IMG/VR virus record: IMGVR_UViG_3300014208_001442
Coordinates: 1-37,699 of that record
DNA length: 37,699 bases
DNA from: a virus
Taxonomy: Duplodnaviria; Caudoviricetes
Strand: one strand, 5' to 3'
Part shown: in pieces, positions 5,120-37,699 of the stretch
Position numbering within the stretch: the stretch's first letter is position 1
Layout of the letters: the number at the start of each line of letters is the position of its first letter
The notes under the pieces: generated by a model
The model's database searches: none
What the model was told of the DNA's origin: nothing
The model's input: the letters and a program-made list of their open reading frames with translations, nothing else
Position numbers and translations under genes: made by a program

Positions 5120-5123
5120 AGGT

Positions 5124-7487
5124 TTAGGCGCAAGCCAGGCTATCGATCAATTTTTGAGCGGCCTCCACGTCAAAGCGCTTCATCCGGTTTTTTTTCATCG
5201 CCGCCTGCGCTTCCTTCACGTCCGCGTCGATTTTCGCCATTGCCTTTTTTTGCGGGGTGGAATCCGGCTTGAACCGCTGGATACCCCTCATGAACTCCTC
5301 GCCGAGGGCCGCCATCCGCTCGCTGATCAGCTCCTTGACGTACCGCGCTGCGCTGTTCTCCGTGACACTTCCCTTCTCGGCCACGATCTCCTGGCCGCGC
5401 CGCGTCTGCGCAAGGCTGCGGGCCTTCGTAAGCTGGGCAAATAGGGCGGTATTTCCCGACTCCAGCGCCGCCTCCGCAAGCGCGATGTTCACGGACGTGG
5501 AGGTTTGGCCGGCCACGGTCTCCAATCCCATCGCCACACGATAGGCCTTTTGCTTATCAGACCCCACGAGATCAACGGCCTTCCGTGTGTCCTCCTTCAG
5601 ATTGATCGCGTTGTACGAGACGTCACCGGGCAGCTCCTGCGGCATCTCGGACTTCAGTCGCGCGTAAACACGGCTTTGGCGAGGGTTTTCTGGATCAATG
5701 GACGAGGCCGTGTCCAGCCCTGCCACGGTTGCTTCATTTTCTTTCGGTCCCGTCTCCCGTCGGAGGGTATCCGTCGGCACGGCCTCCTCCGCTATACTCT
5801 TGACGGTGGATCTAATTTCCTCGGCGCGCGTCGCCGAAACGATCTTTGCCACCTCGGTAGCAATGCGTTGCAGCACGGCTGCATCCGGCGCTTCAGGATT
5901 TTTTTGACGCTGGCGATTGGCATAGTTCAATACCTCGCGACGCGCCCTCTCTATGGCCGTCTCAGCGGAATCAGAAAGCGGGTTGACCGAGTATTCGGAC
6001 TGTATCCCGTTCTTCGGCGTTAAGACCTTGTAAGCGTAACCGAATTTTCCGTCCTCGTACTCCACAATCCTGATTGTCGCCACTTCATCGACCGCTATCA
6101 CCTCCCGCTCGTTTCGGGTGTAAAAGTCGTCCAAGGTCTGCTGCGCGCGCACGACGCTTTCCACGTTGGCGGAACGATTTCCGATTGAGGATGCCACGGT
6201 TTCGCGGGCGTCCACAACCGGCGTGCTTACCCTTATGGAATAGCCCTGGGCGAGCTTTTCCGGTTTCGTGGAATTTTCCCGAAGGAAGTTGCGCTCGGCC
6301 CGTTCGACGGAGGTAAGCATGGAGTAATTTGCCCGTTCGTCCAGCTCCTGCAGGCGTGCCTTTGCCGTCGATACCGTGGCCTCGTTCGCGGGCGCGGGCT
6401 TCAGGTTTCCGGACCGGGTGGATGCCTGCGGCTGCACGGCCTTGCTGCGCACCTTGTTGATCGAATCGACGAACGTGCTCATGCCGCCGCCGACCAGCGA
6501 CCCTCCGGCGAACGAGGTGACGTTGCGACCGGCGATTTCGTCCCAGTCGAGCTTCTTCCCGAGCACGGTTTCCGCTGCGACCTGCAGATCTTCCTGAATA
6601 ACTTCCTGCACGCCCTCCTTCGTCGCGGTTTTTAAACCCCCGAACAAGACGCCCCCGAACGACTTGGCAAGGTTCTCCTTGAGGACCGAGGTAAGATTTC
6701 CAGGCGTCTTTGAATCGATGAAACCGATCAGAAGTCCCGCCGTCAGCGCGACGGCATCGGACGTTCCCTCATCGACCCCGTTCTCACGGCCGATCCGCTT
6801 CATCTCGCCGACTGTCGGGGCCGTCGCCAGCAATAGGCCGGCCGGGGCGTTAAGCAGGATGGGAACCATGCTCCCGACGCCCTGCGACGAAAGCATGAAC
6901 GCGGTTTCCTTCAGATTTTCCGGCTTGAAACGGTCTTGCCACGACGCCTCCTGCCAGGACTTGCTCGGTGCGACATAATCGTTTGAACTCACCGTGCCGG
7001 CGAGCTTCTGCGCGTCCCCGATTGGTTTGTCCGAAACTTTCTGGATAACGCTCTTCACCGTTTTGTCGAATTTGCTGGACAGCGGATCCGTAACCTTCGA
7101 CGCAGGAAAACCAGCCGCGCCTGCGCCGGCATTCGCCGCAGTTTCCAACGTCTTGTTGAAAATGAAGTTCGAAAGATTACCACCACCTCGCAGAAGCTCG
7201 CCCGCATACCGGCTGGCGTAGTCCGTGACGACCGGAACAGTTTCAGCGATGCTGGTGAGAATCGTGGATCCCACGTTTGCAGCCCATCGCCCAAAACTGA
7301 GGGGCTTCTTCTCCACGGTTTTGGCTGCGGACACACGCGGTGACGTCGAAGCAGCCGTGTCCGCCGAAGCAGGCCTCTTCGCGGAGGCGTTGGCGGCGGC
7401 CCATCCGCCGGACTGAGCGCCGGACGGCACGACGGTCTGGACGGGTTTCGCCCCAGCAGATTTGTTCAGTTCATCCCAAGAGGACAT
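5124..7487 (-). CDS. Large Ala/Gly-rich probable ejection protein
   Basis: 787 aa; hydrophobic Gly-rich helices and EGVQEVIQE motif typical of podophage internal proteins; position. Confidence 0.55.
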   Translation of the reverse strand: MSSWDELNKSAGAKPVQTVVPSGAQSGGWAAANASAKRPASADTAASTSPRVSAAKTVEKKPLSFGRWAANVGSTILTSIAETVPVVTDYASRYAGELLRGGGNLSNFIFNKTLETAANAGAGAAGFPASKVTDPLSSKFDKTVKSVIQKVSDKPIGDAQKLAGTVSSNDYVAPSKSWQEASWQDRFKPENLKETAFMLSSQGVGSMVPILLNAPAGLLLATAPTVGEMKRIGRENGVDEGTSDAVALTAGLLIGFIDSKTPGNLTSVLKENLAKSFGGVLFGGLKTATKEGVQEVIQEDLQVAAETVLGKKLDWDEIAGRNVTSFAGGSLVGGGMSTFVDSINKVRSKAVQPQASTRSGNLKPAPANEATVSTAKARLQELDERANYSMLTSVERAERNFLRENSTKPEKLAQGYSIRVSTPVVDARETVASSIGNRSANVESVVRAQQTLDDFYTRNEREVIAVDEVATIRIVEYEDGKFGYAYKVLTPKNGIQSEYSVNPLSDSAETAIERARREVLNYANRQRQKNPEAPDAAVLQRIATEVAKIVSATRAEEIRSTVKSIAEEAVPTDTLRRETGPKENEATVAGLDTASSIDPENPRQSRVYARLKSEMPQELPGDVSYNAINLKEDTRKAVDLVGSDKQKAYRVAMGLETVAGQTSTSVNIALAEAALESGNTALFAQLTKARSLAQTRRGQEIVAEKGSVTENSAARYVKELISERMAALGEEFMRGIQRFKPDSTPQKKAMAKIDADVKEAQAAMKKNRMKRFDVEAAQKLIDSLACA

Positions 7488-7496
7488 AGGTATTTT

Positions 7497-9497
7497 TTAT
7501 TCAGTAGCCGCGCGTCCGACGAATTTTTGCGTCTTAGCGTCGTATCCTCCGCCAAGCATCTGGTCGATAAGTTCGTTGGATGCGTTGGGATACAGGATGT
7601 GCAGGGAGTCCCAGGCCGCGCCCCATTTAATGTCGCCGTCGTCCAGCTTCTGGACGAATGCCGCCGCGTCGTTGCGGAACTTTGCAATTTCCTTGTCTTC
7701 GTCCGTGGGTCCGGTGCTTCCGCCGCTTCCGCTACCGGCCACGCGATTTCTGATTCCCGTCGCGAACGTCTGCTGCGAACCGTCCTTGTAAATAACGGAG
7801 ACCGTAGAGTCGTCATCGCTGTTGATCGTCGTAAGAATTTCCTTGTTTGAGCTCGACGCGGCCACCATCTTGAAGAAATCCGCGCCGAGACCGGACTCGA
7901 CCCCCAGTCTCGTGAGCGTGGCCTGCTGCCCCGGGGAAAGCAGGTCGAAAGTCTGGTTGTTCGACGCCATCGAGTTGACCATGATCTGGGCGTTCGCGCG
8001 CGCGTTGTCCAAGGCACGTTGCTCCTCGGACTTGTTCGCCTCCTCGATGCCCTTCGCCGCGTTGAAGAGCGAGATGTTCTGCGCGAACTGCTTGTCGTAC
8101 GCCGCGCTGGCGTTGGCGTAGTCGGTCGCATCCGCCTTCATCAGAGTGTCGATGATCCCGTATTTCGTCTGGAGCAGGTTCGACGCGGCGGTGAGCTGGC
8201 GGTTCAGGGCGTCGATGCGCTCGTTCTCCTGCCGCTCGGCCTCCCCGATGCGTCCCGATATCACGTTGGTCGCCACGGCCTTTCCGCGCTCGGCGGCGAC
8301 GCGGGCGCGCTTGTTCGCCTCCACCTCGGCGAGCTGCGCCTGTAGGTCGTTTACCTGCGACTCAAGGTCCGTGACGCCGTATTCCGCGCGACGGTCCTCA
8401 AGCGCGGCTGAGGTGTCGGGAACCGTCGGGGCGGCCGTATCCGGGGTCACGGACTTCTCGATCTCAGCCATGATGTCCTCGACGGTCCTGCGGGTCGTGG
8501 GCGCGTCCGAGGTCGTCTTGGAGGCGATGTCGGCATCCTGGTCGCTGTTGATCGCGGCATTCGCGGCCTCTGCCGTGAGGATGCCGGACAGGTCCGAACC
8601 TCCGCCGGCTCCCGCTGCTGCGGCTTTTCCGGGGAGAGTCAGCGTCTTTCCGGCATAGATCTGGTTCGGGTTCGTGATCTGCGGGTTCAGTCGCATCAGC
8701 TCGGCTACCGTCGTCCCGTTCGCGAGCGCGAGCGCGGAGAGCGTGTCGCCGGACTTAATGACGTAGGATTCGCCGGGACTGACCGGGGCAGCCTTGCCGG
8801 ACTCCACGGTGGCGTTCGCGGCGTTTTGGGCTGCCGTCGGAACGGCCGTGTTCTGCGGCGTCGACACGGAACCTCCCGCCACGTTGGTTGCGACTCCGGC
8901 GTTTCGCTCGATGGTCGCCTGTCTCTCGGCGGCGGCGCTCATTCGCTGGTCGCGGGTGAGGTCAGCGGTCGGAATCACGTCGCCGGACGCGAGCTTGGTC
9001 GTGCCTCCGGAAGTGGCGTATCCGCCGGCGGCGAGGTCGGCATTCTTCTTGGCGGCCTCGGAGGTCATGCCGGCGGCCCTCGCCTCAAGCGCTGCGCGCT
9101 CGGCGGGCGTTCCCGTGAAGTTCGAGAAGTCGGTCAGGTTGGCCGCGTTCGATTCGAGGTTCGCGGCCTTCGCGGCATCCTCCGCCGCCGCGCCGGCGGA
9201 ACGGGAGAACATCCGGTCCGCCTTGTGCTTCTGCGCGGCACCCGTGATCCACGAGTACGCCTTGTCCAGCTCCTTCTCGGCCAGGTCGGTGCCGTGGTTG
9301 TCCAGGCGCGACGACTTGCCCGCGATCCGCTCGTCGTAAGAGTCGAGCTGCGCGATCGCGGTGTTCGCCCATCCCTGCAGGACGCTGTTGTTCGCCAGTG
9401 AAGAAACCTCGCCGGACAAAATTTTCTTTGCGGCCTCGCGGATGGCGGTCGGGTCCTTCTTGATCGACGAAAGATATTGTTTGAGGTCAAGTGCCAT
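7497..9497 (-). CDS. LysM-domain coiled-coil virion protein
   Basis: Clear LysM: YVIKSGDTLSALALANGTTVAELMRLNPQITNPNQIYAGKTLTLP; long coiled coil downstream. Confidence 0.8.
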   Translation of the reverse strand: MALDLKQYLSSIKKDPTAIREAAKKILSGEVSSLANNSVLQGWANTAIAQLDSYDERIAGKSSRLDNHGTDLAEKELDKAYSWITGAAQKHKADRMFSRSAGAAAEDAAKAANLESNAANLTDFSNFTGTPAERAALEARAAGMTSEAAKKNADLAAGGYATSGGTTKLASGDVIPTADLTRDQRMSAAAERQATIERNAGVATNVAGGSVSTPQNTAVPTAAQNAANATVESGKAAPVSPGESYVIKSGDTLSALALANGTTVAELMRLNPQITNPNQIYAGKTLTLPGKAAAAGAGGGSDLSGILTAEAANAAINSDQDADIASKTTSDAPTTRRTVEDIMAEIEKSVTPDTAAPTVPDTSAALEDRRAEYGVTDLESQVNDLQAQLAEVEANKRARVAAERGKAVATNVISGRIGEAERQENERIDALNRQLTAASNLLQTKYGIIDTLMKADATDYANASAAYDKQFAQNISLFNAAKGIEEANKSEEQRALDNARANAQIMVNSMASNNQTFDLLSPGQQATLTRLGVESGLGADFFKMVAASSSNKEILTTINSDDDSTVSVIYKDGSQQTFATGIRNRVAGSGSGGSTGPTDEDKEIAKFRNDAAAFVQKLDDGDIKWGAAWDSLHILYPNASNELIDQMLGGGYDAKTQKFVGRAATE

Positions 9498-9559
9498 ATA
9501 TGGGGTTAACCAGTTACCATGATTTCAGGATCATCTCGTCGATCGCGAAGGAAAGGTCG

Positions 9560-9760
9560 TCACTGCTCCTTTTGGTAATTCGTCGGAGGATAGACGCCAA
9601 GCTGTCGCATCATCCATTCGCCGAGGCAGGTCGAACACACCGCGAACATCGCCTTTCCCTCCTTTTCCTTTGGAAGAACCTTCCTAATGCGAAATTTGAA
9701 GACGGTTGCGTCAGCCTCTACGCATGAGCAGGTCGAGCACGGGATGGAATTCGTTGCCAT
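9560..9760 (-). CDS. Small Cys-rich (possible Zn-binding) hypothetical protein
   Basis: CSTCSC...CSTC; TATG start right after the upstream stop. Confidence 0.55.
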   Translation of the reverse strand: MATNSIPCSTCSCVEADATVFKFRIRKVLPKEKEGKAMFAVCSTCLGEWMMRQLGVYPPTNYQKEQ

Positions 9761-9762
9761 AG

Positions 9763-12345
9763 TTAGCTCTGCCGCATCGACAGGTAATAATTATTGTTGA
9801 GCCCGATGGTGCGCGCGACGGATGTTTGCGTCTCGATGCCGAAGCTCAGTTCCCAATCGGTAGCCCCGGTCGGAATGTTCGTGCTGATTGTCGCCACGGC
9901 CACGCCGTTTATGTAGAAGACGACCGAGGTCGCGGCCGTGTAGACGAACGAGTAGGTGTTCCACCGGTTGAGCGTTACGAAGCTTGAGATGTCCGTCCTG
10001 GTCTGGGTGGTCCCGTTCGCGACCGAGGCATAGAGTGTTCCGTCGTCGAGCAGGAACGCGATGTGGCGCTCCGTGGTGGTCGCGTCGTCCGGCACGTCCG
10101 GCGACGTTACCGTCGTTCGGCATCCGAGCCCCCAGATTCCGTTCTGGAGCGTAGTCGCATCAACGCGGATCTGGCATGAGAACCACGAGCTGTTGTCCCA
10201 GTCGAGATCCCCAGGAGACGAGTCCCACAGGAGGCCATCGTTGCCGTGGAGAGTTGCAGCGCGGCCGGCCACAGCACCCGTGGCGATGGTCGTCTGAGCC
10301 GGGTTGGTGCGCGCGATCGTAAATCCCGTGTCGCCCTCGGCAATCAAGCCGTCTGCTTTGTTGCCGATGAAATATGTGTCAGGGGATAACAGCTGAACCT
10401 TTGTAAAAATGGCGGAACCATCCTCGAACAAAACGAATGGTGCTGTCGCTCTGTTAGCAAAGGTCGAGCCAGCCCACCAACGTACGTCATTCCCTGCCGT
10501 TACCGTGGAAGCCATCCCAAAGCTGTCCGCGACATCCCGAACGTAATCAGAACCCAGGACGAAGCCCCCAAGGTTCCCAGAAGGCGCGGACAGAGTTCCT
10601 GCGAAAGTTGCTGCCCCGGTGGCGGCGTCGAGCGTAAAGGTGGCGACTCCCGCCGCCGCCCCGACAATTCCTCCCCGATACACCAACACGCCGGATCCGC
10701 CCGTGATGGCCCCGGTCGTCGTGTTCCAAGTTATCGTGCCGGAGCTGACGGCACCGGCGTAGTCCGACGCACCGAACGTGAATCCGGCGAGCATGGTTTT
10801 CGCGGACGAGTCCAGTCGCGCGTTGATCAGGTCTGTAATGACGTTTCCGGATGAATTGATCGCCGCCGCGACCGTGGCGGTGGACCTGCCGGAAATCGTG
10901 CCGGCAATAGTAGCGGTATTGGCGGTAAGATTTCCGGCTTCCGTCACGAAGAACGGGGCGGTAGCCCTGTTCGAGAAGGTAGAGCCCGCCCAAAAGCGAA
11001 CGTCGTCCGATCCGGAAACGGTCGACGCCATGCCCATCGAGTCCGCGGCATCGCGGATATAGTCGCTTCCAAGCACGAACCCGCCCAAGTTTCCGGACGG
11101 CGCTGAGAGGGTCCCGGCAAAAGTGGCGGCACCCGTCGCGGCGTCCAGGGTGAACGTAGCCACTCCCGCGCTCGCTCCGACGATGCCTCCTCGGTAGACA
11201 AGCGTGCCAGATCCACCGGTTATCGCTCCCGTGGTCGTGTTCCAGGTGATGGTTCCTGCGGACAATGCGCCAGAATAATCCGCCGCGCCGAAGGTGAATC
11301 CCGAAAGCATCGTCTTCGCGGAACTGTCGAGCCTGGCGTTGATGAGATCCGTGATGAGATTTCCGGACGAGTTGATCGCGGCTGCAACGGTCGCGGTGGA
11401 ACGGCCGGAAATGGTCCCGGTGATAGCGGCGGACGTGGCGGTGAGCGCGCCGGCCTGCGTGACGGTGAAGCTCGGGCTTCCGGTCGGGCCGGCCGAGAAC
11501 GCGGTGGAGCCCGAAGACATCGTGGTCGTGTTTCCTCCGGCCGACGCAGAAAGGGTGGTCGCCCCGATGTCGAATCCTCCGATTACGCCGTCCGGGGCGG
11601 AGAGCGTGCCGGCGAAGGTGGCGTCGCCCGTGGTCGCGTCTATGACGAAGGTTGCCACCCCGCCGGACGCGCCGATGATTCCTCCCCGGTAGAGCAGGAC
11701 TCCCGACCCACCCGTCAGCGCGCCGGTTGTGGTGTTCCACGTGATGGTTCCGGACGAGACGGCACCCGCGTAGTCGGCGGCACCGAAGGTGAATCCGGCT
11801 AGAAGCGTCTTGGCGGACGAGTTCAAGCGCGCGTTCAGGATGTCCGTGATCAGATTTCCGGAGGCGTCGATGGCCCCGGCAATGGTGGCCGTAGAGCGTC
11901 CGGAAACCGTTCCGACGATAGTCGCGGAGTTCGCCGTCAAGTTTCCCGCCTCGGTGACGAAGAAGGGCGCTACTCCCCTGTTGGCGAACGTATCTCCCGC
12001 CCAGAACCTCACGTCGTCGCCGACGGTGACGGTGGAGGCCATCCCAAAGTTATTGCCAGCGTCGCGGATGTAGTCCGTTCCGATGACGAAGCCGCCGATC
12101 GCCCCGGCAATCGCCGTGATCGTTCCCGAGATGATCGCGCCGGTCGCCATGAGAATCCCCAGCATCGACACGGAGAACGTCGCGTCGGCGAATCTCTTCG
12201 CGCCGAGCCAGATGCCGCTCTTGTCCGCATGGTACGAGGTATTTCCGTCCCCAACGTTCACCTCGCTCAGGCTCTGGCGCGAAGAATCGCCCGGTTCGGC
12301 GGGGGCGATGGGATCAAGGTTTCGAAAGTCGAGCTTCCTAGCCAT
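9763..12345 (-). CDS. Tail fibre / receptor-binding protein with internal repeats
   Basis: Gly/Thr/Ala-rich, ~3.3 tandem ~170-aa repeats, C-terminal LamG/lectin-like segment (WNTYSFVY...VVFYINGVAVAT). Confidence 0.75.
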   Translation of the reverse strand: MARKLDFRNLDPIAPAEPGDSSRQSLSEVNVGDGNTSYHADKSGIWLGAKRFADATFSVSMLGILMATGAIISGTITAIAGAIGGFVIGTDYIRDAGNNFGMASTVTVGDDVRFWAGDTFANRGVAPFFVTEAGNLTANSATIVGTVSGRSTATIAGAIDASGNLITDILNARLNSSAKTLLAGFTFGAADYAGAVSSGTITWNTTTGALTGGSGVLLYRGGIIGASGGVATFVIDATTGDATFAGTLSAPDGVIGGFDIGATTLSASAGGNTTTMSSGSTAFSAGPTGSPSFTVTQAGALTATSAAITGTISGRSTATVAAAINSSGNLITDLINARLDSSAKTMLSGFTFGAADYSGALSAGTITWNTTTGAITGGSGTLVYRGGIVGASAGVATFTLDAATGAATFAGTLSAPSGNLGGFVLGSDYIRDAADSMGMASTVSGSDDVRFWAGSTFSNRATAPFFVTEAGNLTANTATIAGTISGRSTATVAAAINSSGNVITDLINARLDSSAKTMLAGFTFGASDYAGAVSSGTITWNTTTGAITGGSGVLVYRGGIVGAAAGVATFTLDAATGAATFAGTLSAPSGNLGGFVLGSDYVRDVADSFGMASTVTAGNDVRWWAGSTFANRATAPFVLFEDGSAIFTKVQLLSPDTYFIGNKADGLIAEGDTGFTIARTNPAQTTIATGAVAGRAATLHGNDGLLWDSSPGDLDWDNSSWFSCQIRVDATTLQNGIWGLGCRTTVTSPDVPDDATTTERHIAFLLDDGTLYASVANGTTQTRTDISSFVTLNRWNTYSFVYTAATSVVFYINGVAVATISTNIPTGATDWELSFGIETQTSVARTIGLNNNYYLSMRQS
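10420..12097 (-). repeat. Tandem ~500-bp coding repeats within tail fibre
   Basis: GRSTAT...NARL(D/N)SSAKT...GTITWNTTTGA...ATFAGTLSAP occurs three times; GGFV(I/L)G.DY.RD...DVR(F/W)WAG occurs three times. Confidence 0.9.
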
Positions 12346-20555: not shown

Positions 20556-21524
20556 CTAGACCGACGCGCACATGATGCGCGTGAGGAAGTTGTCGTTGAG
20601 GATCTTCGCGACGAACGTGGCCTTCCAACCGGAGGTCGCGCGCTGGTCGAGCGGGTCGGCAGAACCGGCGGATCCAAGCGGCTTGACGATGTTCTTCATC
20701 GCCTCGCCGGAGACGCGCGTGGTGCCGTACGCGTTCGCACCGAGGATGAGCACCGAGTAAAGGTCGATGGACGAGGTGCCGGCCGCCGTGAACACCTTCG
20801 CGTTGGTGGACTCCACGAAGCGGACCTCGTCGTACTTGCCGATCTCGCCCGGCAGCACGCCCATCTGCGAGGAGTAGTTCTCCACCTTCGTGAAACCGGT
20901 CATGGCCTTCAGCGTCGTGGAGATGTTCGGGTGGACGATGCCGATGTACGACGCGGCCACCGGGGCGGTCGCGTAGCCCGTCGACGGCTCGATCATCTTC
21001 GTGACCTTGCGGGCGTTGTTATTCTTGAGCGTGGTGACGGCGGCGATGATGTTCGCCGTGGTCACGACGTCGCCGGCGGCCACGTGCGAGTTCTGCGTGT
21101 TGGCCGTGCCGGCGTAGGACACGGACGTACCCGCGTTGAGCACGTCGCGCGTGAGCTGGTCGATGGTGTCGCCGGCCTGGTCGCCCAAGATTTCAGCGGC
21201 CTCCATGAGCACCGGGTCGGCGGACTCGTAGTCGACGACGTCCGAGATGGTGATGAAGTCGCCGTACTGGAGAGCCGCGGCGGTGATGTCGGTCACGGAG
21301 AGCGCGGAGCCGTCCGGCGTGACGCCCTCTGTGAGGGCGGTAGTCGCGGCGGTCAGGTTCCCGTAGCGGCGGAACTTGGCAGTGGAACTGCCCCCGTTGC
21401 GCTTCACGTCCTTCGGCTGCGCCCAGTGCGTGTGAATGAACAGCGCAACCGCGCGCTCAAGGAGCGTCCGGTTATATACGCTGGCCACCTCAGCGGGAAT
21501 CTGTGTTCGAGTGGTGGTTGACAT
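20556..21524 (-). CDS. Major capsid protein, N4-gp56 family
   Basis: KFRRY...LTEGVTP...QYGDFITISD...GEIG...VRFVES...VKPLGSAGSADPLDQRATSGWK motifs. Confidence 0.92.
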   Translation of the reverse strand: MSTTTRTQIPAEVASVYNRTLLERAVALFIHTHWAQPKDVKRNGGSSTAKFRRYGNLTAATTALTEGVTPDGSALSVTDITAAALQYGDFITISDVVDYESADPVLMEAAEILGDQAGDTIDQLTRDVLNAGTSVSYAGTANTQNSHVAAGDVVTTANIIAAVTTLKNNNARKVTKMIEPSTGYATAPVAASYIGIVHPNISTTLKAMTGFTKVENYSSQMGVLPGEIGKYDEVRFVESTNAKVFTAAGTSSIDLYSVLILGANAYGTTRVSGEAMKNIVKPLGSAGSADPLDQRATSGWKATFVAKILNDNFLTRIMCASV

Positions 21525-22846: not shown

Positions 22847-24808
22847 CTATGCGGGGATAGGCATCGCGGGCATTCCCGGCACCGCGCGCTGCGACGCGAT
22901 CGGGGCACCCATGTTCGCCTCCTCCTGCGGGTCCGTCGGACGGTTCCGCGCGAGGTCGAGCGCCGGGTTGACGCGCTTGAGCATCATCGCCTTGCGGTGC
23001 GCGTTAATATGGGCGAACTTGGCCGGGGTGTCGGCGGCCTTGTTGTGGACCTGCATGTGCATGAAGTCGTCGTCGTAGACGTTGACCGGGACCTTCTCCC
23101 CGGCATCCAGCCCCTCGTTCTCGGCCTCGGCGGTAAGCTCGTCGACCGTCGGCGGGAGGATCTGCTCCACCTCGTCCTTCTGAAAGCCCGAGTACTCGCC
23201 GATCTTGCGGAGAGCCAGGCGGATGTTCGCGCTCTGCGGGTCCGTGGCCATGATGTCCTTGAGGAAAAGCCGGTACTTCTGGAGGTTGTTCGTCTTGATC
23301 TCCTCCGCGACGACGCGGGACTCGACCACCACGTCCGGGTCGTTCACCGCGATGATGTTCTCGCGCGTGAGCTTTCGCCATTTGAACCCCATCGCGCCCC
23401 GGATGCGGATCACCTTCTCGTCGATTCCGGCGGTGAAATGGTCCTTGTAAAGCTTGTACCAGTACTTCCAGAAGCGTTTCTCGGACCAACCCCAGATCTT
23501 CGCGGAAAGGGAGTAGCGGGTGTCCACCTTGTTGGAGACGAGGTTGAGCTCGGTCGCCGTGCGCTTCGTGCCGCCGGTCGCGCCCTGCTGGATGTCCGGC
23601 GTGGCCGTGGCCTTCTGCGCGGCGGCGTCGAGCGTTTCTAGGATCCATCCCACCTCCGCCTTCACCTCCGCGCGGGGGACGAGCTGGATGGCCCCCGAGG
23701 GGTTCCCGTCCACGCCGACGTGCTTGTTCATCGCGAGGTTGAGGTCCGCCTTGTTCTTGATCTTGTTGAAGTCATAGAGATACGTCGGGGTGAGCCCGGT
23801 CTTGATCCCCTGCAGCCCCATGTTCTGGAGCGACGCGCGCGCCCGCTGCTTGTCCTCCACGAGGTCGGGGATGGACACCCCGTCCCAGTCGTGGGCGATC
23901 GGGTAGAGCGGACGGTCTACGATGGGCCAGAACGACGTGTCGAGCTCTTGGTAGCGGACGACCTTCTTGCATTCGTCCCCGAGGGTGACGAGGACCTTCT
24001 TCCCGTTCCAGTTCGTGAACCATTCGAGCAGGCGGATCTCCGAGTTGTCGCCCGTCGTGCTTTCCTCGGTCTTGGACGAGCTGTCGAACCCCTGCGCCTC
24101 GCGCCGCGCCGTCACGTTCCTGTCGTACTGCTCGCGTCCGGTCGCCGAGTCGGCCTTCAGGCCCTCGAAGTCGAAATACACTCCCGCCTCGCGCATCTGG
24201 CCCTTCGTGAGGCGGATCTCGCGGCCGCCGTAGCGCATGGCACCGCGTCCCTTCCGGTCGCCGTTGACGCTCTTAGCGCGCGGGTCGCGGATCCAGGTCA
24301 TCGGGTCGATGATTTCCGGAATCGGGCACATCGCCTTGCGGTCGAACTCCATGATCAGCTTCAATCCGCGCCCGAAGAAACAGGTGTCGAAGTCCCACTC
24401 GTAGTCCAGAACGTCGTTCTCCATCTCCTCGTAGTCGAAGCGCGCGAGCGCGTCGATGTTGGAGCACGTCTCCTCGTCGCCCTCCTCGCGCCCCAGGTGC
24501 GTCACGCCGAGGCGGTCGCCGTACAGCGAGGCGAGCACGGTCTGCAGGATCGTGAACATCAGCGGGTCGCCGATGGCCGTCTTGTCGCGCTTCTGGTTAT
24601 TTAATAACTTGAGGCGCACGGCCCACTCGTCCACCTTGGGCTGCATGAAGCGGGAACCGATCTTGAACTCTTCCTTCACCTGGAGGGCCACCTTCGCGTA
24701 GTCCGAGGACTTCTTCCCCTTCTTGGGCTTCTCCTCGCGCGAAACGGAAGAATCCCCGGATTCGTTTCCGAGTTCGTCTTCCGCTTCCTCTTGCTTCTTT
24801 CGAGCCAT
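22847..24808 (-). CDS. Portal protein (P22/podophage-like)
   Basis: 653 aa after TerL; GVSIPDLVEDKQRA and TKRTATE motifs; DDDFMHMQVH C-terminal region. Confidence 0.85.
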   Translation of the reverse strand: MARKKQEEAEDELGNESGDSSVSREEKPKKGKKSSDYAKVALQVKEEFKIGSRFMQPKVDEWAVRLKLLNNQKRDKTAIGDPLMFTILQTVLASLYGDRLGVTHLGREEGDEETCSNIDALARFDYEEMENDVLDYEWDFDTCFFGRGLKLIMEFDRKAMCPIPEIIDPMTWIRDPRAKSVNGDRKGRGAMRYGGREIRLTKGQMREAGVYFDFEGLKADSATGREQYDRNVTARREAQGFDSSSKTEESTTGDNSEIRLLEWFTNWNGKKVLVTLGDECKKVVRYQELDTSFWPIVDRPLYPIAHDWDGVSIPDLVEDKQRARASLQNMGLQGIKTGLTPTYLYDFNKIKNKADLNLAMNKHVGVDGNPSGAIQLVPRAEVKAEVGWILETLDAAAQKATATPDIQQGATGGTKRTATELNLVSNKVDTRYSLSAKIWGWSEKRFWKYWYKLYKDHFTAGIDEKVIRIRGAMGFKWRKLTRENIIAVNDPDVVVESRVVAEEIKTNNLQKYRLFLKDIMATDPQSANIRLALRKIGEYSGFQKDEVEQILPPTVDELTAEAENEGLDAGEKVPVNVYDDDFMHMQVHNKAADTPAKFAHINAHRKAMMLKRVNPALDLARNRPTDPQEEANMGAPIASQRAVPGMPAMPIPA

Positions 24809-25215: not shown

Positions 25216-26700
25216 TCAGGTCGTCGCGTAGGGGTCGGGGTTGTACTCCTCCCCGTAGGTTTCGCGCTGTGGCGGGGGCGGCTCGATCCACGTGGGACCC
25301 ATGAAGAGCGTGCGCCCGATCGTCTCGATGTAGTGGTCGTCCTTGTCCACGGTCTTCTCCTTGAGCCCGTGCTTTTCCACGGACTTGCCGACCCAGTTAT
25401 CCCAGGAATAGTGCTCAAGCTCGAAGATCGTGTTGACGCAGGTCTCGAAGACGAAAAGCTGCGGCGGCTTCAGGATCTCCTCCGTCCCAGGCGCGCGCCT
25501 GTACGAGAGGGCGTCCTCGATGCACTTGTCCGAGTCCGTGCGCGCCTTCGTGGCGGCCATGTAGGACACACCGAGCCCGGACAGCTTGAGCGCGAGGCTC
25601 TTCCCGCCGGGGCCGTTCGGGTTGTGCTGGTCCTCGTTGAACGCGGACGGGTCGATCACGCGGCGCTGTATGCGGAACCTGTCGGCCTTCGCCTTGACCT
25701 CGGTGGCCAGCCCCTCCGTCTCCCCGGAATATTTCAGCTCGTCGACGACGTACCAGTTGTTCTGCCGGTCCACGGCGATCCACGTCGCGGCGTCCGGATG
25801 GCGCGGGTGCACGTCGAGCGACTCATAAACGGTGAAGTCCTGCTTGTTGACGTGGAACGGCTTGATGACGTGGACCTTCCGGTTGAAATCCTTGAACCGG
25901 AGGCCGACGAGGTGCTGGAACTTCCCGTGCACGCGCGCCTGCTTCTCGTCCTCGGAGTATTCCGCGGTCATCTTCTCGATGTTGGCGTGCTCCAGGTGGC
26001 CGCGCGTCCCGTGCTGCTTGCACGCCGCCTCCACCCCGGCCTCGATGTAGACGCGCTGGCCCTTGTCGAGCAGGTCGCCGGTCGGATTCGCGATCACGTG
26101 GTCGTAGAGCCAGGCGGCAGACAGCGGCGTCTCGGAGATGAAGATGATCCCGCCCTTGCGCAGACGGCCGACGCACGCCTTGAAGATCGCCTCGGGCGGG
26201 GGCTCGTCGAACCAGATCCAGCCGAGCGTCGTGGACTCGAACTCCTTCACCTCCTGGTCGTACGTCATCACGTCGAAGCTCCAGCCGTTGTCCGTCTCGA
26301 ACGCGCTGTCGTAGCTCTTCCCGGCCTTGCGCGAGGTGTAGCGCCCAGTCGGCAGCCATTCCTTGAGCGTGGGGATGAGGTTCGACGTGAGGTTGGTGTG
26401 CTCCGAGACGATGCGGCCCTGCTTCGGGTACGGCCATTTCTTGTACAGCGGGTGGTCGAACCAAGGATTCTCGGAGTCGTTGCCGAACAGGATGTGCGCG
26501 ACCACGTTCGCGCTCACGCACGTCTTTCCGACGCCGTTCGCCGCGCTGAACAGCACGATGAAGTTCTCGCCGCTCCCGACCATCCTGATGTACTCCTCAC
26601 ACTTGGCGTTCGGCTCGTAGTAGCGGTACTTCTCGTGGGTCAAACGAAAGGCCCGTTCCTCCTTGAGCTCCCGCAGCGTTTTAGAGGCGTCATCGGGCAT
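25216..26700 (-). CDS. terL: Terminase large subunit
   Basis: Walker A AANGVGKT, Walker B WIWFDEPPP, RNase H-like C-terminus (SLDVHP, IDPSA, KDDHYIE). Confidence 0.93.
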   Translation of the reverse strand: MPDDASKTLRELKEERAFRLTHEKYRYYEPNAKCEEYIRMVGSGENFIVLFSAANGVGKTCVSANVVAHILFGNDSENPWFDHPLYKKWPYPKQGRIVSEHTNLTSNLIPTLKEWLPTGRYTSRKAGKSYDSAFETDNGWSFDVMTYDQEVKEFESTTLGWIWFDEPPPEAIFKACVGRLRKGGIIFISETPLSAAWLYDHVIANPTGDLLDKGQRVYIEAGVEAACKQHGTRGHLEHANIEKMTAEYSEDEKQARVHGKFQHLVGLRFKDFNRKVHVIKPFHVNKQDFTVYESLDVHPRHPDAATWIAVDRQNNWYVVDELKYSGETEGLATEVKAKADRFRIQRRVIDPSAFNEDQHNPNGPGGKSLALKLSGLGVSYMAATKARTDSDKCIEDALSYRRAPGTEEILKPPQLFVFETCVNTIFELEHYSWDNWVGKSVEKHGLKEKTVDKDDHYIETIGRTLFMGPTWIEPPPPQRETYGEEYNPDPYATT

Positions 26701-28704: not shown

Positions 28705-29049
28705 TCACGACAGCAGGGCCTTCGCGTCGTCGAGCGAACGGACGATCACGTAGCGTCCTCCCAATTCCTCGACCGCGCTCTGGAACCGCCTTTGCGCTGG
28801 AGACTGCCTGCCGGTCTTCGGCTTCTTCACCTCCATGAACAGCGTCTCGCAGAAGCCGCCGTCCCGCGCCGTGCGCCACACGAGAAAGTCCGGCGAGCCC
28901 TTCTTTCCGAACCGCAGCAGGCGCATCCTGCGGCCCCTGTCGGGAATCAGGACCGCCCCGCTGTTGTTCTTCTGGTACACGAGTTCGCCGCGCGCCTCCT
29001 TGCGCCGCAGGAACCGCTCGATGGCCGTCTGTATGCGCGATTCGAGCAT
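28705..29049 (-). CDS. VRR-NUC domain nuclease (Holliday junction resolvase-like)
   Basis: MLESRIQ...KGSPDFLV...FMEVKKP.TGRQSPAQ..FQ...GGRYVIVRSLDD; start refined to ATG 29049. Confidence 0.88.
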   Translation of the reverse strand: MLESRIQTAIERFLRRKEARGELVYQKNNSGAVLIPDRGRRMRLLRFGKKGSPDFLVWRTARDGGFCETLFMEVKKPKTGRQSPAQRRFQSAVEELGGRYVIVRSLDDAKALLS

Positions 29050-29138
29050 AATGTTTTGGAGCGCCCCTCGCGCCACCTGGTACCCGGCGCGAGGGAGCCT
29101 GTCACAGCCGAACTGTCACGTTCCGCGCTCCCGTCTCA

Positions 29139-33715: not shown

Positions 33716-34612
33716 CTAGCTGCTGATCCCCTGGTCCGACTTCGCCTTCTTCACCGCGTCGTGGCCGTACAAATTCCCGTATGAGAACGCTTCGTACGAG
33801 TAGCCGCCCCAGTCCTTCCACCCGTCGTGGCTCTTCACGCGGATCTTGCCCTGCTCGTCGATGAAGCACTGCTCGCCGGAGCACAGGAGCTTCGGCTTCT
33901 CCGCGCGCGCCGGCTGCGCGTGGGCGAAGTCGCGGCTGCGTCCGATCCAGTAGTCGAGCCGCCGGCCCACCTCGAAGGTCTTTTCCATCTGCCAGCGCTG
34001 CCTGGTTCCGGCCTTGTTCGGCTCCGTCCAATAGGCGACGAACCGTTCCATCTCGCCGCGCACCGCCGCCTCGGGCGATCCGGATTCCACGAGCCGCCGG
34101 ATCGCCGGTTCCCGCGAGGAAGGCTTTTCAAAGAAGTCGGATGCCGTATCTTTCGGAGTGAGAGTTTGCGGCAAGCTATCTAACTTCTTTTCATTCTCTA
34201 CATTCTTTACATTCTTGTTTGTGTTCGTTTGTTGTGCATCTGTTGTTCGTTTGTTGTTCGGGTGTTGTGCATTTTGTTGTTCATCCGTCTGATACTGCTT
34301 CCAGTTTTTGACCGTGATTAGCCTAAATTTGTTATTTTTCTGTTGTGCAATTTGTTGTGCATCCTCCAGTACATTTAGCCAACGTTCTACTTTCATTTCG
34401 GAAACATTCGTTTTCTCCGAAAATGACTTCCTTCCGGTGGCGAACTGGCCCTCCGAACAGGTGACGGATTGGTTGCCAAAGTAGAACGTCTTGCCCCTGT
34501 GGTTGGCCATCAGAAGGATCGTCGTCCAGAACCCCAACCGTTCCGCGTTCCCCTCGCAGAACGGGTTTTCCAGAACCTTCCGATACAGTTTCACCCACCC
34601 CTCGGTCTTCAT
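33716..34612 (-). CDS. Phage replication initiator (replisome-organiser-like N-terminal wHTH)
   Basis: EGWVKLYRK...LLMANH...GQFATGRKS...ITVKNWKQYQ followed by Q/N/T-rich linker; start refined to ATG 34612. Confidence 0.85.
   Translation of the reverse strand: MKTEGWVKLYRKVLENPFCEGNAERLGFWTTILLMANHRGKTFYFGNQSVTCSEGQFATGRKSFSEKTNVSEMKVERWLNVLEDAQQIAQQKNNKFRLITVKNWKQYQTDEQQNAQHPNNKRTTDAQQTNTNKNVKNVENEKKLDSLPQTLTPKDTASDFFEKPSSREPAIRRLVESGSPEAAVRGEMERFVAYWTEPNKAGTRQRWQMEKTFEVGRRLDYWIGRSRDFAHAQPARAEKPKLLCSGEQCFIDEQGKIRVKSHDGWKDWGGYSYEAFSYGNLYGHDAVKKAKSDQGISS
34190..34363. repeat. Iterons and AT-rich tract; putative replication origin
   Basis: TGTTGT(G/T)C at 34230, 34241, 34252, 34263, 34275, 34341, 34353 (11-12 bp spacing) plus CATTCT 9-bp repeats, inside the initiator gene as in lambda O. 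Confidence 0.75.
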
Positions 34613-34622
34613 ATGCGCTGGG

Positions 34623-34835
34623 CTATCCCATATATTTTTCAATGAGTTCCAACTCACGCTCCACCTGGTTTTGGGACACACGGCGCACCCACTTCAACGC
34701 GCGGATCTGTCCCTCCTTGATCGACTTGTGAACGAGTTTCTTCACCTTCGCCCTGTCTCCTGCCAGCGCGGCCTCGATTACCTTTTCGGCCGTCAGGTGC
34801 GCCTGGATCCTCCCCGCCTCCTCGATATTTTCCAT
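34623..34835 (-). CDS. Small helical hypothetical protein
   Basis: ccttATG start, packed between FtsK fusion and initiator. Confidence 0.6.
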   Translation of the reverse strand: MENIEEAGRIQAHLTAEKVIEAALAGDRAKVKKLVHKSIKEGQIRALKWVRRVSQNQVERELELIEKYMG

Positions 34836-34848
34836 AAGGTTCGTGCGA

Positions 34849-36921
34849 TTACGTGTTGTAGCCTTGGAGCCGCTGTACGCCGTGGTCCGTCGAGAAGAGC
34901 ATGTCGCCCTTCCCGAGGAGCTGCTCCGCGCCGTCCTCGTCTAGCATCACCTGGCTGTCGACCTTCTTGGCCATGCGGAACACCGCCTTCACCGGGAAGT
35001 TGACCTTCACGTCGCCCGTGACGATCTTGGTGCTCGCGCGCTGCGTTGCGAGAACGATGTGGATTCCCGCCGCGCGGCCCTTCTGGGCGAGACGCTGGAT
35101 GTTGTCCGCGATTGTCGCCTCGTCCCCCTCGGTCTCCCGCTTCGTGACCTTGCCCTTCTTCGTGACCGTTTCCGTCACCGTGACGGCGCGAGGCTTCCTT
35201 CGCTCGTCACCGCTCACGAGGTCCGCGTACTCGTCGACCATCAGGAAGATCGGGGTCCACCCGGCCTCGCGCGCGTCGCGCTTCTTGGCTTCCCTGAGAC
35301 GCGCGTAACGGGCTTCCATCTCGACGACGAGGCCGGCGATCATCGCCGCGATCTCGTCGCGCTCCGTGGCGGCCCCGTACTGCGCGAATTCGACCTGCTT
35401 CGGGTCCGCGAGCTTCAATTCCGCACCGGTCTGGGAAAGCTGTCTGATGATCGAATGCAGGAACACGGACTTTCCCGAGCCGGACGATCCGGCCACGAGC
35501 ATGTGCGGGGCGTCGCGCAGGTCGAATCGGCAGATGTCGCCGTTGATCGTCTCGCCGATGGCAATCTCGTAGCCGGCAGCTGCCGGAAGCGTCGGGAACC
35601 GGCGCGTCGCGCGCGGAACCTCGAAGCCGACCAATGTCGTTCCAGGGATAGGCGCGAGGACGCGCACGGTGGTCGCGCCGAGCACCTGCTGGATGTCCTC
35701 CGCGTACTGCTTGATCCGGCTCATCTTCACGCCGATAGACGGCGAAAACCGGTACAGGTCGACCGTGGCACCCTCGATCACGCTGTCGAAGCGCAGGACG
35801 ATGCCGTGCTCCAGAAACTTGGTCTGGATCTTGTCGTTGTTTTTCATAGAGTCGTAGTTCATGCTCTTCGCCTCCGTCAGCTGCCCTTCCACCGCGCTCA
35901 TGAGCTTGCGGACGTTCGCGGCGCTCTGCATTTCCGATTTAAGTACCTCGGTCAGCGTCGACACCTGGTGCTTCTTCATCTCCTTCGCCGCCTGTTCCGG
36001 CACGTCGAGGCGCTGGATGTACGCCACGATCGACACCTCGTTGTCGAACATCGTGCGGACGTTCGGGACGTAGACCATTTCGCCGTTCAGCGCGCGCACC
36101 ATGTCCGCGAACAGGCGGAAATAGAAGTCGAAATACAGCTCGTTGTCGCCGAACACGATCTCGTATTCGCGTACCTGCGGCCCGCCGTCCTTGTTCTTGG
36201 TCGTCTTCACCTCCTCGTAAGTCAGCGAATACGGGGCCTCGCCGTACGCGGCATAGGCCAGCAGGTAATATTCGACCGCCTGGATGATCTTGCAGCCGTC
36301 GATCTTGTCGAGGTCGGAGAACGACGAGCAGGTCTTGTAGTCGCGGATCTTGAGGCGTCCCTTCGCGTCGCGCGTCGTGCGATCGATGTATCCCTTGAGT
36401 GGGACCGGGAGCGTGACCTTCTCTCCGCGCCAGTCGATGTCCACATCCGTCACCAGCTTCTCCTCGCAGGCGACCGTCGTCTCCGCGTCGCGCTTGGCGA
36501 ACTTCACGTACTCCGTGACGGCGAAGCTCACGCGTTCCAATGCCTTCTGCCGCACGTCCACGGTCTTGGAGTAGTTGATGAACCCTTCCGGATACGCGGC
36601 CATGTATTCCATCCCGGCCTCCAGCGCGAGCCTGATCGCCTCGCCCTCGTCGGAAGGCCCGTCCTTCGCGTAATAGACCTCCATCGCGTGATGGAACGCC
36701 TTGCCGATGACGGCGCTGACGTTCGTCGTCGTGTCGATCTCGTCGCGGTTGAGATATTTGATCTTGAAGAGGATCGGGTTGGTGGAAAACGAGATCATGG
36801 AGCTGGCCGAGATGTGGTCGAGCGGGAAGGCGTCGACCGGCCTGTCCTCATTTGCCGGTCGGAGCGTCACCAACGGTAGGCGATTCAACTTCGATGACTT
36901 TTTCTTCGTCGCTTTGGGCAT
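34849..36921 (-). CDS. PD-(D/E)XK nuclease - FtsK/SpoIIIE alpha-beta translocase fusion
   Basis: Nuclease: HISASS, IGKAFHHAME, LKGYIDR, IRDYKT, IQAVEY. FtsK alpha: EGATVDLYRFSPSIGVKMSRI...VRVLAPIPGTTLVGFEVP. ATPase: PHMLVAGSSGSGKS, DPKQVE, LMVDEYADL, LAQKGRAAGIHIVLATQR, GAEQLLGKGDML. Start refined to MPKATKKK. Confidence 0.92.
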   Translation of the reverse strand: MPKATKKKSSKLNRLPLVTLRPANEDRPVDAFPLDHISASSMISFSTNPILFKIKYLNRDEIDTTTNVSAVIGKAFHHAMEVYYAKDGPSDEGEAIRLALEAGMEYMAAYPEGFINYSKTVDVRQKALERVSFAVTEYVKFAKRDAETTVACEEKLVTDVDIDWRGEKVTLPVPLKGYIDRTTRDAKGRLKIRDYKTCSSFSDLDKIDGCKIIQAVEYYLLAYAAYGEAPYSLTYEEVKTTKNKDGGPQVREYEIVFGDNELYFDFYFRLFADMVRALNGEMVYVPNVRTMFDNEVSIVAYIQRLDVPEQAAKEMKKHQVSTLTEVLKSEMQSAANVRKLMSAVEGQLTEAKSMNYDSMKNNDKIQTKFLEHGIVLRFDSVIEGATVDLYRFSPSIGVKMSRIKQYAEDIQQVLGATTVRVLAPIPGTTLVGFEVPRATRRFPTLPAAAGYEIAIGETINGDICRFDLRDAPHMLVAGSSGSGKSVFLHSIIRQLSQTGAELKLADPKQVEFAQYGAATERDEIAAMIAGLVVEMEARYARLREAKKRDAREAGWTPIFLMVDEYADLVSGDERRKPRAVTVTETVTKKGKVTKRETEGDEATIADNIQRLAQKGRAAGIHIVLATQRASTKIVTGDVKVNFPVKAVFRMAKKVDSQVMLDEDGAEQLLGKGDMLFSTDHGVQRLQGYNT

Positions 36922-37699
36922 ATTCGGTCTGTTCGTTTTTAAGTAAGACGGCCCCGAGCTTGAGCTTGGGCGCGATGTCGGTGGATTCATCGAGCCGGTC
37001 GCCGATCACGCTGTCCTTGTTGTCCTCGCCGATGGCCTGGATCAGCTTCTCGTTCTTCGGCACCAGCTTCGCGGCCTGTTTCAGTACCGTCTTCTTCCAC
37101 ATCCACAGCTCTGGGTCGTTCTTCGGGTTCCACGGCGAATCGGGCTTGTCGAACGCCTTAGAGAACTTCTTTCCATGAGCGAGAATGTCCGTCGCGTTCA
37201 TGTACTTCGTTGCGGTCTCGCCGGACGGAAGCATGACGCGGACGAATGCGCCGATGGGAGCTCCGCGCTCCTCCATGCTCTTGCGGAGGTCGATCTTATG
37301 CGTGAGCTCCCCGTCTACCATCTCGTAGGTGTCGTTCTCGCGGATGATCTCGCCGACAATCTTCTTCACCCCCGAGCGGTAGAACAGCGTCACGAGCCCC
37401 TGGTATCCGATCTGGAACTGCGCCACGCCGCCGTACGGGATCACGTACGCCTCGCCCGACACGTCGCTCGGCATGAGTTCCAGCTGGGCCATGATCATGA
37501 AGCTGTTGATGACGCTCTCGGCAGTGCACTCCATCAGCTTCGGCTTTCGCTGTACCGCCGCGACCACGCCCGAGAGGAACCGGAGCGCCCTCTTCTCGTC
37601 CCCAAAGAAATTTTTGATCTGCTTCTGGTACTGGTTGGCGATCACGGATTTCAGGTCAGTGATATCCGTGAAGGGTTTGCTAAGCTTGTTTTTTTCCAT
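36848..37699 (-). CDS. recT: RecT-family ssDNA annealing protein
   Basis: PKLMECTAESV...AQLELMP...GEAYVIPY...AQFQIGYQGLVTLFYRSG...SPW...MWKKTVLK. Confidence 0.93.
   Translation of the reverse strand: MEKNKLSKPFTDITDLKSVIANQYQKQIKNFFGDEKRALRFLSGVVAAVQRKPKLMECTAESVINSFMIMAQLELMPSDVSGEAYVIPYGGVAQFQIGYQGLVTLFYRSGVKKIVGEIIRENDTYEMVDGELTHKIDLRKSMEERGAPIGAFVRVMLPSGETATKYMNATDILAHGKKFSKAFDKPDSPWNPKNDPELWMWKKTVLKQAAKLVPKNEKLIQAIGEDNKDSVIGDRLDESTDIAPKLKLGAVLLKNEQTEYAQSDEEKVIEVESPTVGDAPTGK

Follow-up and report, generated by a model that had tools for sequence, protein, structure and literature searches.

A PD-(D/E)XK nuclease fused to an FtsK motor beside phage annealases: a candidate motor-driven exonuclease partner of RecT

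Why would a tailed phage encode, directly behind its RecT annealase, a nuclease that is joined in one chain to an FtsK-type DNA motor, and what could such a protein do? The question is raised by the IMG/VR record IMGVR_UViG_3300014208_001442, whose whole stretch of 37,699 nucleotides (nt) is referred to here as the window. It is a 37.7-kb provirus record (CheckV completeness 98%) in which integrase, portal, terminase and capsid genes are present, and at its right-hand end recT overlaps the gene of a 690-amino-acid (aa) nuclease–FtsK fusion. As set out below, the fusion gene occupies the exonuclease slot of a phage exonuclease–annealase module, and the protein, judged from its sequence, would probably use ATP to resect DNA ends and pass single-stranded DNA (ssDNA) on to the annealase. 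The features on which the argument draws are the following (window coordinates):

36848..37699, minus strand: RecT-family ssDNA annealase, 283 aa (PF03837, E 2.5e-34; phrog_148; TIGR00616 above cut-off)
36947..36964, minus strand: RecT tail peptide LKLGAV, residues 246-251, a predicted docking peptide and variant of the LKMGNL-like motif
36848..36921, minus strand: 74-nt overlap of recT and the fusion gene, with the acidic RecT tail and the basic fusion N-terminus in different frames
34849..36921, minus strand: nuclease–FtsK fusion, 690 aa, single open frame (Pfam; homologues; AlphaFold2 model with a mean predicted local distance difference test score, pLDDT, of 89.8)
36082..36828, minus strand: PD-(D/E)XK nuclease domain, residues ~32-280 (H77, E153, D180, D194, K196, Q214; no iron–sulfur (Fe-S) motif)
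35872..36081, minus strand: helical linker, residues ~281-350, kept in the window's clade, with a low-confidence hinge at 345-350
35614..35865, minus strand: FtsK alpha domain, residues 353-436 (Pfam; K399 and R402 correspond to the DNA-exit residues K377 and R380 of Pseudomonas aeruginosa FtsK)
34852..35568, minus strand: RecA-fold FtsK beta motor, residues 452-690 (K484, D563/E564, R616; loop II R628/S630/G636/K639; in loop I, Q657 in place of R661)
33716..34681, minus strand: replication-initiator/DnaD-like gene, part of the same early operon and downstream of the fusion gene (phrog_2514, E 1e-35)

Pfam recognised the complete domain set expected by the first-pass annotation, namely PDDEXK_1 (residues 36-258, E 4e-15), FtsK_alpha (353-436) and FtsK_SpoIIIE (452-630). 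The same three domains were found in 120 of 120 homologues among the matches listed, and the 120 matches listed for a profile of the nuclease half were all fusions. At fusion length (at least 581 aa, E <= 1e-10), at least 457 protein clusters matched the profile of the nuclease half; the 1377 matches of the homologue search also cover ordinary FtsKs and do not measure how large the family is. Database names of the family are automatic, e.g., 'DNA translocase FtsK' or 'RecB family exonuclease', and the nuclease half was unmatched in 50,697 GenBank phage records. Bacterial clusters with the same PD-(D/E)XK and FtsK Pfam set also exist, and a distant member occurs in the cultured bacterium Chryseobacterium indoltheticum (WP_076562377.1).

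The genomic context was analyzed in 240 viral and metagenome loci, a tally from which 79 cellular FtsK loci were excluded. The two halves were fused in 220 of them, ten were cut by the contig end, seven held stand-alone nucleases, two were without the nuclease part and one carried a split fusion. Interrupted copies were seen at L151, L164 and L177, the split one being tallied apart and the other two counted among the 220. Residues H77, E153, D180, D194, K196, K484, E564 and R616 were invariant in 119/119 close and 53/53 diverse members, as was Q214 across the 53 diverse full-length members, and D563 of Walker B was either D or E. Since catalytic residues of both the nuclease and the motor are invariant, both halves are under selection. 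Further, the divergence of the two halves was correlated (Spearman 0.80 over 3240 non-independent pairs). In one fusion of 984 aa (P0126), ~300 aa are inserted into the motor ahead of profile position 48; this insert gave no Pfam intein match and could be a divergent intein.

The overlap of RecT with a protein of about 690 aa, put at 74 nt by the first-pass annotation, was measured at exactly that length, and a comparable overlap was found in most relatives. The record ends at the ATG of recT, and the parent contig (L142) has a further in-frame ATG 14 codons earlier. For the fusion, an alternative in-frame ATG lies 23 codons upstream in the window (position 36990); the start at 36921 is supported because 58 of 59 related loci have an upstream in-frame stop before the equivalent start.

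The neighborhood of the fusion proved to be constant on one side. A RecT/Red-beta gene was located within 2 kb upstream and on the same strand in 175 of the 179 fused or contig-cut loci having at least 2 kb of upstream DNA, counts that are in-sample, the annealase profiles having been built from these same loci. When loci were grouped at 70% identity, the upstream annealase was present in 74/78 groups and in 0/78 in the downstream control, so that the linkage to annealases held. According to Pfam and PHROGs, representative partners were RecT, Bet-like or divergent RecT-like proteins, the last class being the weakest (Pfam RecT match in 3/7, PHROG RecT-like match in 7/7). Four exceptions were detected: RecT lies at 2.4 kb in L237, a Rad52/Sak-type gene (PF04098 above cut-off) takes its place in L320, and members of phrog_3657 do so in L318 and L319. 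A FastTree of 81 fusions shows 12 changes of partner subtype (RecT, Bet-like or divergent RecT-like), and therefore the link between fusion and annealase survives partner swaps.

The two phrog_3657 genes in the annealase slot (L318:3129-3965 and L319:3090-3965) encode ~280-290 aa without a Pfam match, and among named Atlas clusters even the closest ones (Rad52, RecT and Sak) reached only 0.78-0.80. Their products are candidates for a new or very divergent annealase.

Which other exonuclease could serve these annealases was examined in 37 phage records of the window's clade, 23 of them at least 90% complete. Neither YqaJ (PF09588) nor DUF3799 (PF12684) was found in any of the 37, and PDDEXK_1 never matched more than once per record, with one match in 35/37. 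The fusion gene fills the exonuclease position of the module.

Representatives at 50% identity that matched the nuclease profile comprised distant fusions and stand-alone nucleases of ~260-330 aa. In a quick tree of 93 nuclease domains, 36 stand-alone sisters formed one branch (Shimodaira–Hasegawa approximate likelihood ratio test, SH-aLRT, 95), and eleven short proteins, which may be fragments, fell inside the fused part. Annealase genes accompanied the sisters in four of the seven loci examined (one of the seven being cut): the nucleases lie directly behind Erf (L306), Rad52/Mgm101 (L307) and Sak4 (L305), and two genes from Bet in L303. Since fusions and stand-alone sisters both adjoin annealases, this nuclease lineage holds the exonuclease slot with or without a motor. 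In two of the stand-alone loci, the frames L304:3983-4948 and L316:4007-4816 are open only if TGA is read as a residue; several of these TGAs fall at positions where the family profile has Gly, a usage that appears to point to hosts with translation table 25 (Gracilibacteria/SR1).

With regard to the nuclease half, the motifs SASS (38-41), G73..FH77..ME81, GYID180, D194-Y-K196 and Q214xxxY218 were found. All motifs quoted in the first-pass annotation are therefore present, but the last has the spacing Q214xxxY218 and not QxxY. The fusion has cysteines only at 152, 198 and 210, and none stands in an invariant or near-invariant column of the family alignment; the pattern of four conserved cysteines of the Cas4/AddB type was absent, in agreement with the earlier statement that no Fe-S pattern is visible. 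The top folds for the model of this half were tied: AdnA (Z 15.0, root-mean-square deviation (rmsd) 3.7, 222 aligned), the putative exonuclease 3l0a (Z 15.0, rmsd 7.1) and Escherichia coli RecE (Z 14.9, rmsd 3.3, 198 aligned).

In the motor half, we located Walker A (478-485), the Walker B VDE (562-564), the arginine finger R616 in KGRAAG and ATQR (625-628). The AlphaFold2 model, computed from a 119-sequence alignment, had its best structural match in P. aeruginosa FtsK on DNA (6t8g; Foldseek E 1.5e-25, ~32% identity), and the motor was closest to FtsK, not HerA, by sequence and by fold. Pfam, motifs and fold match thus agree on the alpha domain and intact RecA-fold motor already proposed for this chain. 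The additional proposal, that transmembrane and gamma domains are missing, was borne out as well. The highest 19-residue Kyte–Doolittle mean in the fusion was 1.32, with no transmembrane segment, and the chain stops within a few residues of the RLQG motif, without a gamma domain: this distance was 2-6 residues in 51/53 diverse fusions vs. 80-124 in the 79 cellular FtsKs.

Residues were mapped by aligning the fusion with the FtsK chain 2iuu_A; a shift of 245 reproduces the published numbering for ten named residues, S383 being off by one. P. aeruginosa FtsK uses the arginine finger R620, loop II residues R632, S634, G640 and K643, and K377/R380 at the alpha exit (PMC7321959). FtsK R620, R632, S634, G640, K643, K377 and R380 correspond to R616, R628, S630, G636, K639, K399 and R402 of the fusion, and the DNA contact K657 also has a matching residue in the window's protein. 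The basic positions of loop II (R632/K643) were kept in 51-52 of 53 fusions.

The annealases may carry a second trace of the partnership. An LKMGNL-like peptide was present in the tail of 48/66 non-redundant annealases paired with the window's clade vs. 1/36 in the other clade, numbers that are in-sample because the motif was defined on the same loci; the single bearer in the other clade is a cut locus that came up in the search for the first clade. Within the window's clade, it occurred in 40/53 RecT-type, 7/12 Bet-type and 1/1 divergent partners, against a motif background of 0.008 per 75 residues, and the window RecT and a Bet-type partner aligned only over the tail region (23.9 bits). Its codons vary synonymously, the frame of the fusion is stopped at the peptide in 58/59 loci, which places the peptide outside that frame, and it is retained where the annealase and fusion genes are 611-1255 nt apart. 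Because of the synonymous codons, the stop in the other frame and the persistence at a distance, the peptide resembles a docking signal that acts at the protein level and has been retained through annealase swaps. These patterns are suggestive of an annealase that docks on the fusion via its tail. In 44 of the 48 peptides the third position is an ATG, and the peptide could mark an internal start.

How might such a complex work? In FtsK, DNA travels out of the beta ring in the direction of the alpha ring (PMC7321959). The fusions have their nuclease on the alpha side of the motor, i.e., the DNA-exit face, and always on that side; pumped DNA would therefore reach the nuclease, as in HerA-NurA. 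We infer that a hexameric ring of the FtsK type would pump a double-stranded DNA (dsDNA) end through the motor in an ATP-dependent manner, and that the DNA would leave on the alpha side towards the nuclease domains placed there. These would chew back one strand, presumably with the 5'-to-3' polarity of RecE and AdnA, and leave ssDNA for a RecT docked through its LKMGNL-like tail. The motorised RecE analogue put forward in the first-pass annotation is supported by the annealase linkage, the lack of a second exonuclease of the two usual families and the intact motor; the ring, the ATP dependence of cutting, the strand polarity and the hand-over are predictions.

Several observations weigh against this resection model. 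RecE and lambda Exo are not known to have an ATPase; an ordinary exonuclease of this kind needs no motor, and the acquisition of one lacks an explanation. Six nuclease sites per ring would also exceed the needs of a single 5' strand. The position of R661 in loop I was R or K in only 26/53 fusions (Q in the window) vs. 77/79 ordinary cellular FtsKs, that of K657 was K in 6/53 vs. 43/79, and that of R380 at the alpha exit was R or K in 28/53 vs. 72/79, the control being mostly Bacteroidota and less diverged than the fusions. On these residue counts, one of the two DNA-gripping loops of FtsK, loop I, is relaxed in the fusions, and with R380 poorly kept too, the fusions may pump less strongly than FtsK or in another way. 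At the level of the locus, the partner in L318 and L319 belongs to a family of unknown function, and these incomplete records show no RecT; the stand-alone loci L304 and L316 have no annealase among the two upstream genes examined. Both the linkage and the tail counts are in-sample, as stated, and a host factor, rather than the fusion, could be what the tail peptide binds. Finally, the HerA-NurA of Thermococcus kodakarensis, the closest characterised geometry, degrades the two strands alike without producing a 3' overhang (PMC12977600).

The strongest competing explanation separates the two activities. Here, an ATP-independent RecE-like exonuclease would serve RecT, and the tethered motor would have a task of its own at that site, for instance removing bound proteins, driving migration of the annealed joint or assisting the recombination-dependent restart of replication. 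The stand-alone sisters, which serve beside annealases without a motor, fit this arrangement, as do the low-confidence hinge of the model, the replication-initiator gene next in the window and the finding of phage DnaB in 0/37 records of the window's clade. Given that the two halves diverge together, albeit over non-independent pairs, and that the nuclease always stands where pumped DNA arrives, we consider it unlikely.

In line with the activity of T. kodakarensis HerA-NurA on both strands (PMC12977600), with DUF4297-HerA as a dsDNA nuclease complex (PMC11291478) and with six active sites per ring, the fusion could also be a processive two-strand shredder of the HerA-NurA/RecBCD kind that destroys host or competing DNA ends, the annealase being only co-expressed or using leftover tails. 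The near-invariant adjacency of an annealase across subtype swaps, the tail peptide that tracks the fusion clade and the lack of the two usual recombination exonuclease families in the 37 records speak against this reading, and it seems rather unlikely.

A motor for segregation, packaging or injection, acting in the partition of a plasmid-like prophage, in dimer resolution or in the movement of DNA into or out of the capsid, is improbable. A role of this sort is what others have guessed at for phage FtsKs that stand alone (PMC3853050), chromosomal FtsK is the nearest relative of the motor, and an integrase was detected in only 4/37 records, so that most of these phages may not integrate. The fusion is, however, devoid of a membrane anchor and a gamma domain, and a separate gamma gene occurred in 1/42 records; moreover, the window has its own terminase and portal, one terminase family alone matches 25/42 records, and the gene sits in an early recombination–replication block. 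The separate FtsK gamma-domain gene (a 90-aa frame) lies at G007:C1:29015-29179, in a fusion-bearing provirus.

Even less credit is due to a phage-borne defence or superinfection-exclusion nuclease–translocase of the 'HerA/FtsK capture' kind. Capture systems with a coupled nuclease and an FtsK alpha domain have been predicted (PMC10853773, section 22), the bacterial clusters mentioned above share the Pfam set, and the motor, in its motor portion only, matches the SspH and mad8 profiles. The fixed neighbor is an annealase in a conserved core synteny, though, and not a variable island. Orc/Cdc6 (TIGR02928) was above cut-off in 0/42 records; five of six weak matches fell in frames of the fusion's length, and a very divergent Orc could escape this search. 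Lastly, an assembly or frameshift artefact or a decayed fusion, to which the three interrupted copies among the 240 loci might point, is refuted by the three-domain homologues, the single-frame loci, the catalytic residues invariant in both halves and the at least 457 clusters at fusion length, and has next to no probability.

The parent contig of the window also gave information on the host. Host genes (alaS, ribosomal proteins, rpoA) are situated directly upstream, at L142:3057-7594, and encode a short AlaS of 631 aa (PRK01584) and an RpoA of 238 aa that covers profile positions 1-229 of 320 and has no C-terminal domain; so short an RpoA presumably fits a member of the Patescibacteria. Named relatives of the fusion come from Candidatus (Ca.) Collierbacteria and from a Patescibacteria metagenome-assembled genome. 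From the host-gene traits, these relatives and the apparent use of TGA as Gly in two stand-alone sisters, the host of the window probably belongs to the Patescibacteria.

In both proviruses with a visible host flank, a ribosomal-protein gene ends immediately before the phage starts, its 3' end facing the phage (gene names of the flanks were read by eye from translations). At L142:8317-9130, just past window position 37699, rpsI with a terminator-like hairpin (8770-8799) precedes the phage, and at L163:7936-9000 it is rplK, after nusG. In both contigs a few small open reading frames and then recT follow on the same strand, and the integrase is at the far end. The arrangement may reflect integration into the ends of ribosomal-protein genes.

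Elsewhere in the window are an integrase (1-1014), a LysM protein (7497-9497), the major capsid protein (20556-21524), an SU10-type portal (22847-24808), the terminase (25216-26700) and a VRR-NUC gene (28705-29076); several genes of 700-860 aa at 2885-12345 gave no significant Pfam family. One downstream-gene family was present in 16/28 related loci and is assumed, without direct comparison, to be that of the window's gene at 33716-34681. In a group of related phages, the fusion has a GroEL-like gene in its vicinity (family F10, 16 loci; e.g., L262:11155-11949), and in L231 a DNA polymerase III beta-like gene (4133-4735) lies between recT and the fusion.

Taken further, the data would describe a widespread, hitherto undescribed recombination machine, mainly of Patescibacteria phages, in which an FtsK ring gripping mostly one strand, as might follow from a kept loop II and a relaxed loop I, bears a crown of RecE-like nucleases and receives interchangeable, tail-docked annealases. 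We put this full picture forward tentatively and hold it to be doubtful in its entirety. If it were true, a single ATP-driven chain would do for single-strand annealing what AddAB or HerA-NurA do elsewhere, with a resection that is fast and passes through bound proteins. Red and RecET pairs drive phage genome mosaicism and underlie recombineering, and in those characterised the exonuclease is passive; one powered by a motor would represent a third coupling of a motor to resection, besides superfamily 1 (SF1) helicase–nucleases and HerA-NurA. It would also mean that an FtsK motor was re-used for recombination, and it could provide faster or longer resection for genome editing. The system lends itself to direct tests, as it comprises two genes, the choice of catalytic mutants is clear and the candidate docking peptide has six residues.

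To what extent is this architecture new? A survey of annealase neighbors names YqaJ, DUF3799 and others (PMC8093625), and FtsK is unmentioned in the accessible text of a review on exonuclease–annealase pairs (PMC11611040) and, by term search, in that of a 2026 RecET mining paper (PMC13490951). Likewise, the pairing of an annealase with a nuclease–FtsK protein is not described in the excerpts of PMC12839542, PMC8190038, PMC3853050 and PMC11291478. We found no published description of such a fusion beside a phage annealase, as judged largely from abstracts; supplementary data or older FtsK-HerA surveys could list it. The first-pass annotation did not recognise the architecture as a characterised one. 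Bacterial PD-(D/E)XK–FtsK clusters exist, however, and a 2024 study predicted defence loci in which FtsK is coupled to a nuclease (PMC10853773). Because of these bacterial fusions and predicted loci, the novelty lies less in the combination of domains as such than in its employment next to phage annealases.

Among systems with related motors, DUF4297-HerA (PMC11291478) and the predicted Orc/Cdc6-coupled HerA/FtsK capture systems (PMC10853773) likewise have a nuclease coupled or fused to a HerA/FtsK motor, and some capture systems carry an FtsK alpha domain, as the fusion does. Both are host defence loci, and RecT is unmentioned in section 22 of PMC10853773, whereas no Orc/Cdc6 gene was above cut-off in the 42 records with the fusion. 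Chromosomal FtsK/SpoIIIE (6t8g) shares the alpha/beta motor, the ATPase residues and DNA loop II; unlike it, the fusion is without transmembrane and gamma domains, has a relaxed loop I and an added N-terminal nuclease. Stand-alone phage FtsKs, such as those of the cluster J mycobacteriophage Optimus and of Bacillus phage Pony (PMC3853050), are also soluble FtsK-like motors of tailed phages, but none of them covers the nuclease half, and no annealase is annotated among the 20 features neighboring the Optimus gene.

Closer in geometry is HerA-NurA, where a ring of the FtsK-HerA superfamily pumps dsDNA into a nuclease on its exit face (PMC12977600). It differs in having two polypeptides at 6:2, a HerA motor and Mre11-Rad50 as a partner, whereas the fusion is one phage-encoded chain with an FtsK alpha/beta motor, a PD-(D/E)XK nuclease and an annealase partner. 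The nuclease fold of NurA is also different from the PD-(D/E)XK fold. AdnAB, AddAB and RecBCD, like the fusion, combine a motor and a PD-(D/E)XK nuclease on one chain, and AdnA was the joint-best fold. They have SF1 helicase motors and C-terminal nucleases; the fusion has a ring-type dsDNA translocase in place of an SF1 motor, an N-terminal nuclease and no Fe-S staple.

In its place in the genome, the fusion resembles most closely the pairs RecE-RecT, lambda Exo-Red-beta, YqaJ-RecT and DUF3799-RecT, in which an annealase stands beside one PD-(D/E)XK nuclease within an early replication block (PMC11611040, PMC8093625). The likeness may extend to docking, as a C-terminal element of the annealase may bind the nuclease in the way that Red-beta's C-terminal domain binds lambda Exo. 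Unlike in those pairs, the nuclease belongs to neither the YqaJ nor the DUF3799 family and carries an intact FtsK motor. By analogy, then, the protein may be likened to the exonuclease of Red and RecET, yet it falls outside RecE/YqaJ, FtsK proper, HerA-NurA and AddAB alike.

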